From Acidimicrobiia bacterium (GTDB taxonomy: Bacteria; Actinomycetota; Acidimicrobiia; Spongiisociales; ZC4RG35): a DNA stretch of 64,000 nucleotides. This document shows, one piece after another, positions 11,501-61,420 of this stretch (position 1 is the stretch's first letter; each line of letters starts with the position of its first letter). Under the pieces are notes generated by a model. The model was not told the DNA's origin, made no database searches, and saw only the letters and a list, made by a program, of their open reading frames with translations. The translations under genes and the position numbers were made by a program. Location of the stretch: positions 136,961 to 200,960 of the forward strand of contig CBDBCY010000004.1 of assembly GCA_965203555.1 (NCBI GenBank), in the 5' to 3' direction.

Positions 11501-12388
11501 GTGAGATCGGGCTTCGTCTCGGTGGTGGGGCGGCCCAATGTCGGCAAGTCCACCCTGGTGAATTCCTTGGCAGGGCAGAAGGTTGCTATCACCTCTCATC
11601 GCCCCCAGACCACCCGAAACGCCATCCGGGCGGTGGTGACCGATCCCCACAACCAACCTCCCGACTGGCAGATGGTGCTGGTCGACACGCCCGGATTGCA
11701 TAAGCCCCGTAATGAGCTGGGTGAGCGGCTGAACCGGCTGGTGTACGGCGCCCTGGCTGATGCGGATGTGGTGGCCTTCCTGGTGGATGCCCGCCAACCG
11801 GTCGGGCCGGGGGATCGAAGGATCGCTCAACGCTTGGCCCAGGACCGGTCGAAGGTGGTGGTGCTGGTAAACAAGACGGACCGGTTCTCCAAGGAGAAAA
11901 TCGCGGTCCGGCTCATGGAGGTGGCCCGGTGGGACTTCGCCGCTTATGTGCCGATCAGCGCCTTGCGCGGTGACAATCTCCCGGCGGTGGTGGCGGAGAT
12001 CTGCGGCCGGCTGCCCGAAGGGCCGATGTACTTTCCCCCCGGCGCCGTCACCGATCAACCCGATTCATTTTTCGCCTCCGAGGTGATCAGGGAGAAGTTC
12101 CTGGCTGGATTGCACCAGGAACTCCCTCATTCGCTCTTGGTGGCGGTGGAGGATTTCCATGTCCGTGGGGATGGGCTGGTCACCGTCAGCGCCAAGCTGG
12201 TGGTGGAGAGTCCCTCCCAGAAGGGAATAGTCATTGGAAGGGGAGGCGCTCGTCTACGTGAGCACGGCACTGAGGCGCGACGGGAACTTGAGACGTTTTT
12301 CGGCGCCAAAGTGTACCTGGACCTGCGTGTGGTTGTGGAGAAGAAGTGGCAACGGAGGTCGGTGCTTTTGGATCGATTCGGGTTCTGA
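11501..12388 (+). CDS. era: GTPase Era
   Basis: GFVSVVGRPNVGKSTLVN (G1), DTPG, NKTD, and a C-terminal KH domain. The track ORF starts inside corC; an in-frame GTG at 11501 gives the usual Era N-terminus. Confidence 0.9.
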   Translation: MRSGFVSVVGRPNVGKSTLVNSLAGQKVAITSHRPQTTRNAIRAVVTDPHNQPPDWQMVLVDTPGLHKPRNELGERLNRLVYGALADADVVAFLVDARQPVGPGDRRIAQRLAQDRSKVVVLVNKTDRFSKEKIAVRLMEVARWDFAAYVPISALRGDNLPAVVAEICGRLPEGPMYFPPGAVTDQPDSFFASEVIREKFLAGLHQELPHSLLVAVEDFHVRGDGLVTVSAKLVVESPSQKGIVIGRGGARLREHGTEARRELETFFGAKVYLDLRVVVEKKWQRRSVLLDRFGF

Positions 12389-12624
12389 ACTGCTCGTTCG
12401 GGCAGATACGAACCCCCGCTGGCGGCGAGTGTTCGTGCCGCGGAGGGTTCTGTGCCTCTGTTATCTCGGGGTGAAAGCAGGGAAGTATGTCGAGATTTGG
12501 GGAGGGGCTACCTGTGGTTTAGTGCAAGGCGTGGGCCGATGACCCCAATGGTGGGGGTCCTCCACAATTCGGGTGCGTGAGATCGGAGGCCAGGAGCGAG
12601 TATGTGCAGGGAGAGCAAGGCATC

Positions 12625-13035
12625 CGGACACCGATGGGTTCCCCCTCTTTCCGGCTATCGCTTATCGAGATACTCCAAGACCTGTCGGAAACCCCGGTCG
12701 AGTTTCTCGTCCGTGGCCTGACGATTCACGTCTATTTTGACGTTGAGCAGGTGAATGTCGTGTTTCACCTCGGCGAAATCGTGTTTCACTTCGGCGATAT
12801 CCTGTTTCACCTCCGCGATGTCGCGTTTCACCTCGGAGATGTCGTTCCCGATGCGTCTCTGCAGGCTGTTGAGGGCATCGGCGGTCATCGAAGCGACGTC
12901 CTTGGCGTCATGCTTCCCGAGTATATCCGGGATCGGCTGTCAATGCCACAGACGCGTCCGCTGCTTGCCTGTGATCTCATCCGGTCCGTCCACCGCGTTC
13001 CAGGATCATCTTCTCTTTGTTCAGCGTCCTTGCTC
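12625..13035. repeat. Copy 1 of a roughly 410-bp direct repeat (the unit carries a small ORF on the minus strand plus conserved flanks). It contains one extra 27-nt unit relative to copy 2.
   Basis: Near-identical to 13101-13490, with scattered substitutions and a 27-nt indel inside the ORF. The copies are separated by a unique spacer of about 65 bp. Confidence 0.85.
12655..12888 (-). CDS. Small coiled-coil protein of unknown function, with 9-aa tandem repeats (DIAEVKxDx)
   Basis: 77-aa ORF MTADALNSLQRRIGNDISEVKRDIAEVKQDIAEVKHDFAEVKHDIHLLNVKID.... ATG preceded by an AAGGA-like RBS. Charged heptad-like repeats. The paralog 476 bp away mostly differs by third-position changes plus a whole-repeat indel, which suggests selection on the protein. 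Confidence 0.5.
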   Translation of the reverse strand: MTADALNSLQRRIGNDISEVKRDIAEVKQDIAEVKHDFAEVKHDIHLLNVKIDVNRQATDEKLDRGFRQVLEYLDKR

Positions 13036-13100
13036 TGGTAGCGGCCCTCTGTCGGGAGATCGGGAGAGTCGTTTCAATGTAGCAGGGATAGCATGGCAGT

Positions 13101-13490
13101 CGGACACCGATGGGTTCCCCCTCTTTCCGGCTATCGCTTATCGAGATACTCCAAGACCTGTTGGAAACCCCGGTCGAGTTTCTCGTCCGTGGCCTGACGA
13201 TTCACGTCTATTTTGACGTTGACCAGGTGAATGTCGTGTTTCACTTCGGCGATGTCCTGTTTCACCTCCGCGATGTCGCGTTTCACCTCGGAGATGTCGT
13301 TCCCGATGCGTCTCTCCAGGCTGTTGAGGGCATCGGCAGTCATCGAAGCGATGTCCTTGGCGTCCATGCTTCCCGAGTATATCCGGGATCAGCTATCAAG
13401 GCCACAGACGCGTCCGCTGCTTGCCTGTGATCTCATCCGGTCCGTCCACCGCGTTCCAGGATCATCCTCTCTTTGTTCAGCGTCCTTCTT
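13101..13490. repeat. Copy 2 of the direct repeat
   Basis: Aligns to 12625-13035 with period 476 bp. Confidence 0.85.
13131..13367 (-). CDS. Paralog of the small coiled-coil repeat protein (one fewer 9-aa repeat). The alternative start at the second Met gives 13131..13343.
   Basis: 78-aa ORF MDAKDIASMTADALNSLERRIGNDISEVKRDIAEVKQDIAEVKHDIHLVNVKID.... The upstream ATG is frame-shifted out in copy 1, so the conserved start is probably MTADALN. Confidence 0.5.
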   Translation of the reverse strand: MDAKDIASMTADALNSLERRIGNDISEVKRDIAEVKQDIAEVKHDIHLVNVKIDVNRQATDEKLDRGFQQVLEYLDKR

Positions 13491-13595
13491 TTGGCAACGG
13501 CTCTCAATAACACAGAAACCAATGGCGCAGACCAAGGCCGTTCGTTTACTGAAGTAGAGCATTTTGCTGTTGTCTGATATCCTTATTGGTGCATT

Positions 13596-16500
13596 ATGAA
13601 AAAAATAATGGCAGCCAACCGGGGGGAGATAGCCGTCCGGATCATGAGGGCCGCGACGGAACTCGGTTTGCGAACTGCAACCATCTACTCGAACGAGGAT
13701 CGCTACAGTCTGCACCGTTTCAAGGCGGACGAAGCTTACGAGATCGGAAGCGACAAGGGGCCGGTGGCGGCCTACCTTGACATCGACGGGATTATCACTC
13801 TGGCCAGGGAGAGAGGGGTGGACGCCATCCATCCCGGTTACGGGTTCCTGTCCGAGAATGCCAGGTTCTCGCGAGCATGTGCGGAGGCCGGCATCACATT
13901 CATCGGCCCGCCACCCGAGTTGCTTGAAGCGCTCGGCGACAAGACCGCGGCGCGGCGACTGGCTGCGCAGGCCGGGGTACCCACCGTCCCCGGCACCGGT
14001 CTGGCGCCCGATGATCCCCGGGAGATTGTCCTCAGTGCGGAATCGGTGGGCTTTCCGCTGATAGTCAAGGCGTCGTTCGGCGGCGGCGGTCGGGGTATGC
14101 GAGTGGTCAACAGTCCCGATGAACTGCTGGGCAGGCTGGAGGAGGCGCGGGGGGAGGCTCAGCGTACTTTCGGGGACGGCTCTGTCTTCCTGGAGCGTTA
14201 CATCGCCCGGGCCCGCCACATCGAAGTGCAGATTCTGGCCGACTCGCACGGCTCGGTGGTCCACCTTTGGGAGCGTGATTGCTCGGTACAGCGGCGCCAT
14301 CAGAAAGTTGTGGAACTGGCGCCGGCGCCGAATCTGGCGGATCAACTCCGCGACGAGATTTGTGCGGCGGCCATCCGGGTTGCCCGGACAACCGGTTACG
14401 TCAATGCCGGCACCGTCGAGTTCCTGGTGGATGCTGATACGGGTGAGTGGTTCTTCATGGAGGTCAACCCGCGAATCCAGGTGGAGCACACCGTTACCGA
14501 GTTGGTGACCGGTGTCGACCTGGTCCGGTCGCAGATTCTGGTGGCGCAGGGATGCCGGCTCCACGAGGCGCCCCTTTCCATCCCTGCGCAGAGCGAAATC
14601 CCTCGTCGGGGAACCGCCATACAGTGCCGCATAACGACCGAGGATCCCAAGAACGAGTTCTCCCCTGACTACGGGCGCCTGCAAACTTACCGCAGCCCGG
14701 GAGGTTTGGGGATCCGACTCGATGGAAATGCCTATACCGGGGCGGTGCTCAGCCCGTTTTACGATTCGCTCCTGGTCAAACTCACCGCGTCGGATACCAA
14801 CCTGCCCGACGCCTGCACCCGGGCCGACCGAGCCTTGCAGGAGTTCCGGGTCCGGGGTGTCGAAACCAACATTCAGTTTCTGCGCAATGTCATCAACCAT
14901 CCCGATTTTCGCAACGGCGTGGTAACCACCCACTTCCTGGAGGAGACGCCCGAACTCTTCGAAATACGACCGCCTCGTGATCGCGCCAACCGGCTGCTGA
15001 GCTATATCGGCGACACCATCCTCAACGGGAATCCCACCGTGGTGGGCAAGGACCATCCGACGAATCTGAATGCCCCTCCCATAGTGCCGGTGGACATGAG
15101 TGCCGAGCCTCCGCCCGGTACCCGGGATCTGCTGCTGGAGATGGGACCGGACAAGTTCGCCGAGTGGGTCTGGGATCAAAAGCGCCTTCTGGTGACCGAC
15201 ACCACTTTCCGTGACGCACATCAGTCGCTTCTGGCAACTCGGGTGCGCACCTACGATTTGTTGGGTACGGCCGGGGCAGTGGCGCGGCGTCTGTCGAACC
15301 TGTTCAGTGTCGAGATGTGGGGCGGCGCGACCTTCGACGCAGCGTTGCGTTTCCTGTACGAGGACCCGTGGGAGCGTTTGCGTCTGATGCGCGAGGCGAT
15401 TCCCAACATCTGTTTCCAGATGCTGCTGCGAGCTTCCAATGCGGTGGGCTACACCAGCTATCCGGACAATGTCGTGCGTGAATTCACCATTGAGGCCGCC
15501 CGGCAGGGGATCGATGTTTTCCGGGTTTTCGACTCCCTGAACGACGTGCGCAACATGGAGGTGGCGATCGAGGCGGTGCGCAGCACTCATGCCGTTTGCG
15601 AGGCCGCCATCTGCTATACGGGCGATCTCCTCGATCCGGATCGCCCCAAATACAGTCTCAACTATTACGTGAACCTTGCCCGCCGTCTACAGGAGATGGG
15701 GGCGCACTTACTGTGCATCAAGGACATGGCGGGGCTGTGCCGTCCTTATGCCGCCGACCAGTTGGTGAGGGTCCTGCGGGAGGAGGTGGGCATTCCGATC
15801 CACTTCCATACCCACGACGCCAGTGGTATCCAGGCGGCGACTCTCATAAAGGGGGGCGAGGCCGGGATAGACATCATAGACGCGGCCGTGGCGGCGGTGT
15901 CGGGTTCCACCAGCCAACCCAACCTGAATACGATGGTCGGTTCGCTGGAAGGTACCGAACGCGACACCGAACTCGACTCGGATGCCTTGGGCGATTGCTC
16001 CCTTTTCTGGGAGACGGTGCGTACCTACTACCAACCCTTCGACAACTCTCCCAAGTCCGGCAGTGCCCGGCTGTACGACCATGAGATCCCCGGCGGGCAG
16101 TTCACCAATTTGCAACAGCAGGCGACCGCGCTGGGCCTGGGTCAACGCTGGCGAGAGGTAGAAGAGATGTACGCGGATGTCAACCAGATGCTGGGGGACA
16201 TTGTGAAGGTCACTCCGTCCAGCAAAGTGGTCGGCGATCTGGCTCTGTTCCTGCTCTCCAAGGGGATGACGTGCGATGAGGTGCGAGGGCTTCCTCCCGA
16301 CCACAACATCGGATTCCCCGAATCGGTGGTTGACATGATGCGAGGGTCGCTCGGTGAGCCTCCCGGCGGTTGGCCCGAGGACATTCGAGAGATACTGCTG
16401 TGCCGCAACCGGCCTATCGAGGGACGGGCGGGCGCCAAACTCCCCAGCGCCGACATCGGTGCGGCCGTAGAGACGGCTACGGAGTTGCTGGGACATCGAG

Positions 16501-17036
16501 CAGGGTGGGCCGACGGCCTGAGCTACCTGCTCTATCCGGTTGAGTTCCAAAAATTCGCCGAGACGCGTCGCAAGTTCGCCGATGTCGGCTTGCTTCCCAC
16601 TCCTGTCTTCTTCTACGGACTGGAAGAAGGAGAAGAGTGTGTGTTCGATATCGAGCCGGGGAAGCGCTTGATCGTAAAGTTCCACACCGTAGGTGAACCG
16701 CAGCCCGACGGAACCCGCACGATCTTCTTCGATCTCAACGGAGCCCCCCGTGAGGTCAGGATTCGGGACCGGTCACTGCAATCCGACCGGCCGGCGGCTC
16801 GCAAGGCCGACAGCGGGAACCCGCAACACATCGGGGCGCCCACCCCGGGGGTTGTTACCGGCGTATTCGTAGCCGTCGGGGATGAGGTGACTGCCAACAC
16901 CAAACTGCTGACGCTGGAAGCGATGAAGATGCAGAGCACCATCTACGCACCGGACGCCGGCCGGGTGAAGGAACTGTTGATTCAGGCTGGTAGCCAGGTC
17001 GAGGCCAAAGACCTGCTGGCGGTTCTGGAGTCTTGA
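13596..17036 (+). CDS. pyc: Pyruvate carboxylase
   Basis: 1146 aa with biotin carboxylase N-terminus (ANRGEIAVRIMRAA), carboxyltransferase/TIM-barrel middle and a biotinyl domain (EAMKM) at the C-terminus. Confidence 0.95.
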   Translation: MKKIMAANRGEIAVRIMRAATELGLRTATIYSNEDRYSLHRFKADEAYEIGSDKGPVAAYLDIDGIITLARERGVDAIHPGYGFLSENARFSRACAEAGITFIGPPPELLEALGDKTAARRLAAQAGVPTVPGTGLAPDDPREIVLSAESVGFPLIVKASFGGGGRGMRVVNSPDELLGRLEEARGEAQRTFGDGSVFLERYIARARHIEVQILADSHGSVVHLWERDCSVQRRHQKVVELAPAPNLADQLRDEICAAAIRVARTTGYVNAGTVEFLVDADTGEWFFMEVNPRIQVEHTVTELVTGVDLVRSQILVAQGCRLHEAPLSIPAQSEIPRRGTAIQCRITTEDPKNEFSPDYGRLQTYRSPGGLGIRLDGNAYTGAVLSPFYDSLLVKLTASDTNLPDACTRADRALQEFRVRGVETNIQFLRNVINHPDFRNGVVTTHFLEETPELFEIRPPRDRANRLLSYIGDTILNGNPTVVGKDHPTNLNAPPIVPVDMSAEPPPGTRDLLLEMGPDKFAEWVWDQKRLLVTDTTFRDAHQSLLATRVRTYDLLGTAGAVARRLSNLFSVEMWGGATFDAALRFLYEDPWERLRLMREAIPNICFQMLLRASNAVGYTSYPDNVVREFTIEAARQGIDVFRVFDSLNDVRNMEVAIEAVRSTHAVCEAAICYTGDLLDPDRPKYSLNYYVNLARRLQEMGAHLLCIKDMAGLCRPYAADQLVRVLREEVGIPIHFHTHDASGIQAATLIKGGEAGIDIIDAAVAAVSGSTSQPNLNTMVGSLEGTERDTELDSDALGDCSLFWETVRTYYQPFDNSPKSGSARLYDHEIPGGQFTNLQQQATALGLGQRWREVEEMYADVNQMLGDIVKVTPSSKVVGDLALFLLSKGMTCDEVRGLPPDHNIGFPESVVDMMRGSLGEPPGGWPEDIREILLCRNRPIEGRAGAKLPSADIGAAVETATELLGHRAGWADGLSYLLYPVEFQKFAETRRKFADVGLLPTPVFFYGLEEGEECVFDIEPGKRLIVKFHTVGEPQPDGTRTIFFDLNGAPREVRIRDRSLQSDRPAARKADSGNPQHIGAPTPGVVTGVFVAVGDEVTANTKLLTLEAMKMQSTIYAPDAGRVKELLIQAGSQVEAKDLLAVLES

Positions 17037-61103: not shown

Positions 61104-61187
61104 GCCGGGATACCCAAGCGGCCAAAGGGAGCAGACTGTAAATCTGCCGGCGATGCCTTCGGAGGTTCAAATCCTTCTCCCGGCACC
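61104..61187 (+). tRNA. tRNA-Tyr (anticodon GTA), long variable arm
   Basis: Acceptor gccggga/tcccggc; anticodon loop CTGTAAA; T-loop GGTTCAAATCC. Confidence 0.85.
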
Positions 61188-61209
61188 GGCTTTCCCGCAA
61201 AGACCAAGC

Positions 61210-61283
61210 GCCCCCTTAGCTCAGACGGCCAGAGCGCCTCCATGGTAAGGAGGAGGTCTCCGGTTCGAATCCGGAAGGGGGCT
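61210..61283 (+). tRNA. tRNA-Thr (anticodon GGT)
   Basis: Acceptor gccccct/agggggc; D-arm GCTCAGACGGCCAGAGC; anticodon loop ATGGTAA; T-loop GGTTCGAATCC. Confidence 0.85.
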
Positions 61284-61315
61284 CCCCCGTGCGGCCCGCG
61301 CCGACTACGGGTAAA

Positions 61316-61389
61316 GGCGGCGTAGCTCAGTTGGTAAGAGCGCTCGACTCATAATCGAGAGGTCGGCAGTTCAAGTCTGCCCGCCGCTA
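61316..61389 (+). tRNA. tRNA-Met, elongator type (anticodon CAT)
   Basis: Acceptor ggcggcg/cgccgct; D-arm GCTCAGTTGGTAAGAGC; anticodon loop CTCATAA; T-loop AGTTCAAGTCT. No initiator features. Confidence 0.85.
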
Positions 61390-61420
61390 CATGGAACCAA
61401 AGACAGCTATCGATAAATAC

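Follow-up and report, generated by a model that had tools for sequence, protein, structure and literature searches.

A tandem pair of very small genes between era and pyc of an Acidimicrobiia bacterium, predicted to encode soluble coiled-coil rods with a variable number of heptads

The stretch of DNA analysed here (the window) comprises 64,000 nucleotides (nt) of an Acidimicrobiia bacterium (assembly GCA_965203555.1, contig CBDBCY010000004.1, positions 136,961 to 200,960 of the forward strand), and positions are counted from its first letter. Between era, the gene for the GTPase Era, and pyc, the gene for pyruvate carboxylase, the window holds two direct repeats, each with a short open reading frame (ORF) on the minus strand that contains an array of 7-residue units (heptads); we refer to the repeat on the era side as copy 1 and to that on the pyc side as copy 2 (Table 1). 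Are these repeats genes, to what family would they belong, how did they come to lie between era and pyc, and what might their product do? The reading that we favour, with somewhat better than even confidence, is that the locus is a recently inserted tandem cassette of promoter and gene, the product of which is a soluble, single-helix coiled-coil rod of adjustable length, probably expressed without a leader.

On the evidence of sequence comparison, we conclude with high confidence that both copies are genuine small protein-coding genes. A minus-strand ORF is present in each copy, and the protein sequence quoted in a first-pass annotation of this DNA is correct. The 77-residue protein of copy 1 is identical to a database protein (P0001), and a single-sequence protein search retrieved, at E ≤ 10−3, P0001 itself and 11 relatives. 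A profile search and an exhaustive hidden Markov model search of 1.84 billion cluster representatives yielded about 20-25 full-length members, the remaining matches in that search being limited to the heptads. The ratio of non-synonymous to synonymous substitution rates (dN/dS), calculated on the non-repeat N- and C-terminal modules, was 0.13-0.15 in comparison with a relative at locus L001 and 0.16-0.3 for the other informative pairs. When positions 12389-13600 were compared by blastn to all fetched loci, similarity was found inside the coding sequence only; length differences within the family, which consist of insertions and deletions (indels) of heptads and of the C-terminal module, always amount to whole codons, and in more than 25 members the reading frame runs uninterrupted to the same stop. 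Antisense ORFs gave no Pfam family match, the only Rfam match in the region was at chance level (E = 0.82), and RNA folding gave z-scores of −0.9 to +1.6 for the 3' flanks and the regions upstream, with no structured RNA element. Thus, the view that these are coding sequences rather than dead repeats is supported by the family-wide dN/dS, the confinement of similarity to the ORF and the in-frame indels.

The two ORFs differ mainly in the heptad array. Tandem Repeats Finder (TRF) reported a period of 21 nt (4.2 repeats in 12758-12845 and 3.3 in 13231-13300), so that the repeat unit is 7 amino acids (aa), D-I-A-E-V-K-x. The first-pass annotation had described a 9-residue unit encoded by 27 nt, which is refuted by this period and by the difference of exactly 21 nt between the copies; its observation that copy 1 contains one more unit than copy 2 holds (four vs. 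three). Outside the repeats, 4 codons differ between the copies, of which 1 is synonymous and 3 are non-synonymous, all of these conservative. The description of the differences as mostly synonymous or conservative is therefore weak, and they are too few for an estimate of dN/dS. The designation of the locus as a coding variable-number tandem repeat is supported, given that the array differs from copy 1 to copy 2 and also among strains of one species. The suggestion of phase variability finds no such support: because a 21-nt unit always preserves the frame and the repeats lie inside the ORF and not in the promoter, changes in unit number would alter the length of the protein, without an on/off switch.

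The predicted structure of the protein is simple. AlphaFold2, run on the family alignment in monomer mode, modelled one unbroken helix spanning residues 3-77, with a predicted local distance difference test score (pLDDT) of 96 and a predicted template modelling score (pTM) of 0.57. The protein has a mass of 8.9 kDa and an isoelectric point of 5.1-5.9, and contains no Cys, Trp or Pro; its hydrophobic periodicity peaks at 3.6 residues, with a core spacing of 3-4-3-4 interrupted by two 4-4 steps, such that it combines the predicted continuous helix with the hydrophobic repeat of ~3.5-3.6 residues that is generic for coiled coils. The maximum 19-residue Kyte-Doolittle mean is −0.06 and 0.04 for the two window proteins, and no transmembrane (TM) segment is present, in agreement with the initial description of a charged coiled coil lacking such a segment. 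Within the heptads, I or V occupies position a, V or L position d, K position e and D position g, a pattern that, by sequence, corresponds to parallel coiled coils in which salt bridges link g to e'. Under the design rules for coiled coils, β-branched residues at both core positions favour trimers, and because both core positions of this heptad are β-branched (I at a, V at d), a trimer is the favoured state. A profile search of the PDB returned coiled coils only, including the designed peptides CC-Tri and CC-pIL and the entry 7o97 (E = 1.5 × 10−4), whereas a Foldseek search of the PDB with the AlphaFold2 model gave no matches, as expected for a lone helix. We propose that the helix would assemble into a parallel homo-oligomeric rod of ~11 nm, probably a trimer, in which the heptad array would serve as a length-adjustable spacer between two conserved, presumably partner-binding ends. 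The most likely role of such a rod would be that of a cytoplasmic scaffold or adaptor.

Alignment with relatives identified a longer ORF, which starts 24 nt further upstream with ATGGA(C/T) and reads MD[AV][KRG][DE][VIY]A.. before the MTADAL sequence at which the 77-aa ORF begins; this N-terminal extension is kept at the protein level even in paralogs that are only ~45% identical. The AAGGA sequence that had been taken for a ribosome-binding site corresponds to codons K4-D5 of this conserved longer ORF. The long start is intact in copy 2, whereas in copy 1 a 1-nt deletion (one G lost, giving ATG-AC) disrupts the longer ORF and leaves an 8-codon mini-ORF, the TGA stop of which overlaps the ATG (Met9) of the 77-aa ORF in the sequence ATGA. 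Such overlaps are typical of termination-reinitiation coupling.

Upstream of the long start, in both copies, lies a hexamer resembling a −10 box, and the same arrangement recurs across the family: six independent lineages have a TANNNT hexamer 6-8 nt upstream of the homologous long start, ATG or GTG (namely TATACT in the window, TATGGT in L001 and L003/L007, TAAGCT in L002, TAGGTT or TAGGCT in L079 and L081, and TAGACT, before a GTG start, in L082). As a background, 0.64% of the ATG triplets in the window have TANNNT at that distance. Leaderless mRNAs are common in Actinomycetota, and the named sequences closest to the Era protein come from metagenome-assembled genomes of Acidimicrobiia. Because the hexamer is found in six lineages, the extension is conserved and the host belongs to Acidimicrobiia, the long start is probably transcribed without a leader. 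Where this start is damaged, as in copy 1, translation could proceed from Met9 instead, with initiation either through the purine-rich K/R-D codons (AAGGA) acting as a Shine-Dalgarno sequence or through reinitiation at the overlapping ATGA. In both copies, the −10 box sits in a short inverted repeat, CCCGGATATACTCGGG, which can form a 6-bp hairpin (12916-12931 and 13372-13387, minus strand) and could be an operator site or incidental.

Table 1. Positions in the window of the tandem units, their ORFs and associated elements, and the flanking genes
Feature	Position	Strand	Basis	Remarks
Tandem unit 1, era side	12574-13049	−	direct repeats and global alignment	476 nt; 3' flank, ORF and promoter region
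Tandem unit 2, pyc side	13050-13505	−	direct repeats and global alignment	456 nt
Copy 1 ORF	12655-12888	−	ORF list	77 aa (MTADAL...); starts at the internal Met of the family
Copy 2 ORF	13131-13367	−	ORF list and sequence reading	78 aa; long start MDAKDIAS-MTADAL... intact
Copy 1 heptad array	12760-12843	−	TRF and unit parsing	four 21-nt units (DISEVKR DIAEVKQ DIAEVKH DFAEVKH)
Copy 2 heptad array	13236-13298	−	TRF and unit parsing	three 21-nt units (DISEVKR DIAEVKQ DIAEVKH)
Copy 1 long-start remnant	12885-12911	−	sequence reading; comparison with copy 2, L078 and L084	8-codon mini-ORF, MTPRTSLR and stop
−10-like hexamer, copy 1	12920-12925	−	promoter scan and position	TATACT, 8 nt upstream of the disrupted long ATG
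−10-like hexamer, copy 2	13376-13381	−	position analysis	TATACT, 8 nt upstream of the long ATG
Segment of ~1.1 kb absent from the spacer of the sister species	12470-13583 (approximate)		local alignment ends at 12469 and resumes at 13584	
era	11501-12388	+	Pfam MMR_HSR1 and KH_2	flanking gene, convergent with copy 1; product of 295 aa as called in a sister strain
pyc	13596-17036	+	Pfam Biotin_carb_N, CPSase_L_D2, HMGL-like, PYC_OADA and Biotin_lipoyl	flanking gene for single-chain pyruvate carboxylase, divergent from copy 2

The presence of two direct copies was confirmed (12606-13049 vs. 13082-13505), and the Pfam domains of the neighbours verify that these copies are flanked by era and pyc. 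Three pairs of direct repeats were identified, namely 12606-12823 and 13082-13299 (92% identity), 12779-12909 and 13234-13364 (97%), and 12909-13049 and 13365-13505 (93%); their offsets are 476, 455 and 456 nt, respectively, which implies that the copies differ by one 21-nt and one 1-nt indel. In a global alignment, unit 2 lacks 21 nt of unit 1 (one heptad) and has one additional nucleotide (the G of ATGGAC), and the identity of the two units is 97.7% in the coding sequence and 92-93% in the flanks. Hence, the period of 476 bp that had been assigned to the repeat applies up to the indel, beyond which the period is 455-456 nt. A unique spacer of 65 bp, also part of the original description, does not exist: the units are arranged head to tail and abut, with ~32 nt at the junction (13050-13081 vs. 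12574-12605) that are poorly aligned. The junction itself coincides with a tandem duplication of the 8 nt TCGGGAGA (13052-13067). In the 64-kb window, a 30-mer taken from the repeat has two occurrences, vs. 0 expected from shuffled sequences. At a distance from this locus, the window contains a cluster of tRNA-Tyr(GTA), tRNA-Thr(GGT) and tRNA-Met(CAT) genes on the plus strand (61104-61390).

Comparison with sister species shows how the locus may have originated. In a sister species represented by L086, the Era protein of which is 88% identical, the spacer between era and pyc is only 96 nt long and does not contain the pair, and in another sister species (Era 86% identical), era is followed by a gene of the isocitrate or isopropylmalate dehydrogenase family. 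Given the empty era-pyc site, the pair is a recent insertion, by which the spacer between the two genes gained ~1.1 kb in a single species of Acidimicrobiia. The GC content of the inserted segment is 0.52-0.58, compared with 0.60-0.68 in the neighbouring genes, and its ends are marked by the imperfect repeat TAT(C/T)TCGG / TATTGG. In the empty site, a single stretch of 8 nt (TATTTCGG) is the counterpart of both ends, aligned with TATCTCGG at the left end and with TATTGG at the right. These end repeats may be a decayed target-site duplication. As to the order of events, either the insertion preceded the duplication or a segment that was already duplicated was inserted.

Two metagenome contigs of the same species, with Era proteins 100% identical to that of the window, both carry the pair. 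The strain comparison that had been proposed as a check thus shows that the pair is present in two further strains of the species and absent in a sister species, and that the number of repeats varies between strains. Denoting the copy on the era side as proximal and that on the pyc side as distal, the window strain has a proximal copy with 4 heptads, in which the long start is lost through the 1-nt deletion, and a distal copy with 3 heptads and an intact long start. In L078/L085, the proximal copy has 3 heptads (R-H-Q) and an intact long start (MDARDVAS), and the distal copy has 4 heptads (R-H-Q-H) and a long start changed from ATG to ACG. In L084, the long start of the proximal copy is intact and its array is broken by an assembly gap, whereas the distal copy has 3 heptads and the same 1-nt deletion as copy 1 of the window. 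Compared to the window, L078 has the heptad counts exchanged between its proximal and distal copies and a different order of the units, such that the number of heptads shifts within ~2% sequence divergence.

The order of the units is common to both copies of a strain, and the alleles of the promoter region are mosaic, with the same 1-nt deletion found in the proximal copy of the window and in the distal copy of L084. The shared unit order and the mosaic alleles indicate, at the level of sequence, gene conversion between the two copies. Under the proposed mechanism, 21-nt units would be gained and lost in frame through slippage or unequal recombination, and gene conversion would keep the two copies alike. 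In 3 of 3 strains, the long start is damaged in one copy and intact in the other, and the affected copy varies; this pattern could result from chance, from relaxed selection on a redundant copy or from the maintenance of two isoforms. We also considered that the lesion of the long start might always be coupled to four heptads, which is refuted by the distal copy of L084, where the lesion occurs together with three. The short-read scaffold of L084 breaks inside the proximal array (L084:4800-4900, a run of Ns), and heptad arrays are probably often collapsed or mis-assembled in metagenome-assembled genomes (MAGs), so that heptad counts from short reads should be treated with care.

The proteins related to those of the window form an unnamed, rare and lineage-restricted family of very small, predicted coiled-coil proteins. 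The family consists of about 20-25 clusters among the 1.84 billion representatives and was found in Acidimicrobiia-like MAGs only; a scan of 2.9 million viral contigs gave no relatives, and a scan of JGI metagenomes gave a single locus, which is of the L001 type. Several scattered paralogs are present per complete Acidimicrobiia MAG chromosome, with at least 5 on each of two 4-Mb contigs, and the paralogs within a genome have common sequence only over ~70-125 nt upstream and 15-105 nt downstream. In our family alignments (A6 and A7), the N-terminal cap reads MD[AV].D[VY]A..MT[AE]DA[LM]NS[LM]E.R[LIV]; it is followed by 0-5 heptads, depending on the paralog, of the form D[IVL]A[EG][VL]Kx, and by a C-terminal part with near-invariant K-H-D, [IV].[LR]L.VK[VI]DV and then [LM]D.GF[RQ]Q[IV]..[HY][LI]..R. 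A second consensus gives the cap as MDA[KR]D[VI]A.MTADALNS[LM]E.R and the C-terminal segment as KHD[IV].LL.VK[IV]DV ... [LM]DxGF[RQ]Q...R. The C-terminal [LM]D.GF[RQ]Q module is itself tandemly duplicated in P0008, P0019, P0028, P0029, P0122, P0130 and P0132 and at L081:5001-5252, and constitutes a second type of in-frame repeat besides the heptads. Longer database members (100-213 aa) were considered as domain fusions and rejected, since they look like products of mis-called N-terminal extensions or of frameshifted C-termini.

Several observations weigh against the reading of the locus as an inserted cassette encoding a functional coiled-coil rod. The lesion of the long start in one copy of each of three strains would mean either that this start is dispensable or that a copy is decaying. 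Between near-identical strains, the dN/dS of the non-repeat part is ~0.8, based on 8 differences only. No conserved partner gene or fused domain was found across the compared loci, and the neighbours differ at each. With respect to the oligomeric state, homologs with Leu at position d might be dimers. Finally, the likeness to other heptad proteins could be a convergence of low-complexity repeats.

This last point bears on the question of whether the window proteins derive from a known family. Searches of Pfam, NCBIfam, PHROGs and PADLOC with the two window proteins and 20 family members gave only sub-threshold, generic coiled-coil matches; in particular, the Pfam search, another check that had been proposed, yielded no family match above threshold. 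Of the alternative explanations, the one that fares best, which we consider possible but unlikely, is that the family is a stalk-only descendant of membrane-anchored heptad-stalk families (DUF1640/CCDC90-like, ssr2422 or DUF3782/Tcar0761) that has a common origin with their trimeric stalk, lost the head and the anchor and might co-assemble or compete with such proteins as a free stalk. Consistent with such descent, our profiles retrieve many proteins with D[IV]AE[VL]KxD heptads, most of which match PF07798, the DUF1640/CCDC90-like family of prokaryotic proteins and mitochondrial MCUR1/CCDC90B. The stalk heptads of these proteins are almost identical in motif (e.g., LATKQDIAEVKRDI in P0070 and P0017), and both groups have a variable number of repeats and a predicted coiled coil with a hydrophobic a/d core. 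However, the retrieval is via the stalk heptad region only (D/E-[IV]-A-x-[LV]-K-x), and neither PF07798 nor PF12644 matches the window proteins at E ≤ 10, whereas a true member of PF07798, an ORF of L016, reaches 37 bits in the same type of search (gathering score, 33.5 bits). The window proteins also lack the N-terminal head (FDT..FVK.L..AG...), the A-T-K β-layer and the C-terminal TM anchor of DUF1640 proteins. The 15-23 residues that precede the heptads in the family read MDAKDIASMTADALNSLERRIGN, with neither FDT..FVK..AG nor [aliphatic]-A-T-K (β-layer motif as defined in PMC4786415); the DUF1640-type matches have a C-terminal maximum Kyte-Doolittle mean of 1.9-2.4, and DUF1640 proteins are about 130-170 aa long vs. 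77-78 aa for the window proteins.

Two further families were compared as candidates for an ancestral stalk. Free-standing prokaryotic coiled-coil proteins of the DUF3782/Tcar0761 type, which consist of one coiled coil of near-perfect tandem repeats and are related to stalks fused elsewhere to other domains (PMC4786415), are closest in concept to the window proteins and show that free relatives of DUF3782 stalks have been described. Tcar0761, however, is built from 9-residue nonads (MATKDDIAN) that form β-layers (PMC4786415), whereas the window proteins have plain heptads without ATK, are far shorter, possess their own N- and C-terminal modules and do not match the DUF3782 model of Pfam. Among the curated models, the best score was obtained for the ssr2422 thylakoid membrane protein (NF053525), with 22.3 and 23.0 bits for the two window proteins and with matches at E ≤ 0.01 for 9 of the 20 family members (best E = 3.9 × 10−5). 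These scores for the window proteins are below the cutoff of 38 bits, the alignment spans model positions 1-54 or 15-54 of 77, and the window proteins, while similar in size to this 77-position model, are without a membrane-anchoring hydrophobic segment. A literature search found no paper on the ssr2422 family, and none on PDB entries 7O97 and 7O92. In a cyanobacterial protein at L055 and in some Streptosporangiaceae proteins, the heptads are followed by a tail of loose similarity ('...D.GF / KLDR...'), which would favour common descent. Nevertheless, the matches to all these families are confined to the repetitive heptads, and because this heptad occurs in many unrelated architectures, the likeness may reflect a readily amplified repeat, not descent; convergence or repeat amplification explains it equally well.

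The best solved relative by profile is PDB 7o97/7o92 (UY81_C0065G0003, a hypothetical protein of Candidatus Giovannonibacteria), in which KKDIAGMKHDIAQLDKRIDG aligns with KQDIAEVKHDIHLLNVKIDV of the window protein over ~43 residues, with the N- and C-terminal modules unmatched. The designed peptide CC-Tri (EIAAIKQ) has nearly the same heptad chemistry as DIAEVKQ, at an E-value that is not significant (0.06-0.16). The likeness to ZapB and Lpp is one of analogy only (size class and a single oligomerising helix), with matches to the Pfam ZapB and LPP models far below the cutoff; Lpp is secreted as a lipoprotein, a division partner of ZapB is known, and neither feature is seen in the window family. 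D[VI]A[EG][LV]KQD arrays also occur as N-terminal stalks of proteins of 250-300 aa (at L019, L028, L049, L053, L069, L076 and L077), the C-terminal domains of which, judged by eye, resemble PD-(D/E)XK nucleases; Pfam scans of the stalk proteins of L019 and L077 gave generic coiled-coil matches only. The same arrays, with 2 to more than 25 units, are found in DUF1640 membrane proteins and in long coiled coils of Firmicutes and Streptosporangiaceae.

Next in standing is the doubtful proposal that the family is an accessory mini-cassette which travels with the mobile or variable fraction of the genome (insertion sequences (IS) and toxin-antitoxin islands) and has a role in mobile-element conflict or maintenance, not in host physiology. 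The scattered paralogs, several per genome and with short shared flanks, are in line with this idea, as are the recent insertion between era and pyc, its lower GC content and the imperfect short duplication at its ends. The neighbours of family genes include a DUF2442/DUF4160/HepT island in L079 and L080, an IS110 transposase in L081, PFK and NYN genes in L082, and DDE transposases or fragments in L001, L002 and L080, as well as an IS5-like fragment; the distal copy of L078 is immediately adjacent to an IS end. Conversely, neither terminal inverted repeats nor termini shared from one genome to another were found, the unit encodes no recombinase, the family is missing from viral contigs and no PADLOC or PHROG match of note was obtained; moreover, IS elements may just be abundant in these genomes, and intergenic gaps may be the places in which small genes survive. 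A defined mobile element, similar to a miniature inverted-repeat transposable element or an integron cassette, was rejected on the same grounds, namely the lack of terminal inverted repeats and of flank homology between genomes.

With regard to the IS end, L078 contains, beyond the distal copy (junction at about window position 13516), the sequence AGTCTCCGG[G/A]AAACCCGGGGTGATTCA and not the DNA upstream of pyc. This IS end (L078:1-63) is identical to L081:4830-4862, which abuts the IS110-family transposase gene beside a paralog, and the L078 contig ends inside it; in each of two genomes, a family gene has an IS insertion immediately upstream. A palindrome of ~45 nt that resembles repetitive extragenic palindromic (REP) elements (GGGGTCTTCGCGACCACCCC.GACCAGGGG.AATGGTAGGGGTCCC) is found upstream of two paralogs of one genome (L003:5862-5906 and L007:5861-5905) and, in the opposite orientation, downstream of a paralog of a second genome (L081:5420-5463). 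The interpretation of the locus itself as a REP-like element was discarded, since this palindrome, present near some paralogs, is absent from the window.

A bolder combination of these elements, which we regard as a long shot, is that of a lineage-specific, self-contained mini-cassette, consisting of a −10 box and a leaderless single-helix gene, that spreads intergenically in Acidimicrobiia genomes, uses the heptads as a fast-evolving ruler to set how far apart two conserved binding ends lie and maintains two N-terminal isoforms, in a manner that would fit a conflict with mobile elements or phages. The idea of two isoforms derives from the loss of the leaderless start in exactly one copy in all three strains.

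It is very improbable that the repeats are non-coding or that the copies are decaying pseudogenes without a protein function. The damaged long start in one copy per strain could be read in this way, there is no canonical terminator, the flanks have no significant RNA structure, and the dN/dS between the two copies is uninformative. These observations are countered by the purifying selection across the family, by the more than 25 members with an ORF open to the same stop, by indels that are in frame only, by the end of cross-genome similarity at the ORF boundaries, and by the results for the antisense ORFs and Rfam. The likeness to XhlA, a small protein of prophage lysis modules (PF10779) with an N-terminal coiled coil and a C-terminal TM segment, is superficial (small size, a coiled coil and E-values of ~0.05 for PHROG 'hemolysin' families), and is effectively refuted because PF10779 (gathering score, 34.7 bits) has no match at E ≤ 10 and matches no A7 member at E ≤ 0.01, the window proteins are predicted single amphipathic helices without a TM segment, no phage genes are nearby and viral contigs contain no relative, so that we give practically no credence to this assignment of the first-pass annotation, and the family is not a phage or holin component.

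Taken together, if the preferred reading of an inserted tandem cassette encoding a soluble coiled-coil rod is correct, no long-standing question is opened by this locus, and nothing suggests an unusual mechanism. The finding would add an unnamed family of very small, single-helix, probably leaderless proteins to the catalogue of bacterial coiled coils, and would be relevant to the design rules of coiled coils, to repeat dynamics and to the annotation of small proteins in high-GC MAGs, where such genes are often missed or assigned a wrong start. It would also provide a natural case in which the length of a coiled coil changes by whole heptads during the divergence of strains, accompanied by gene conversion between tandem copies.

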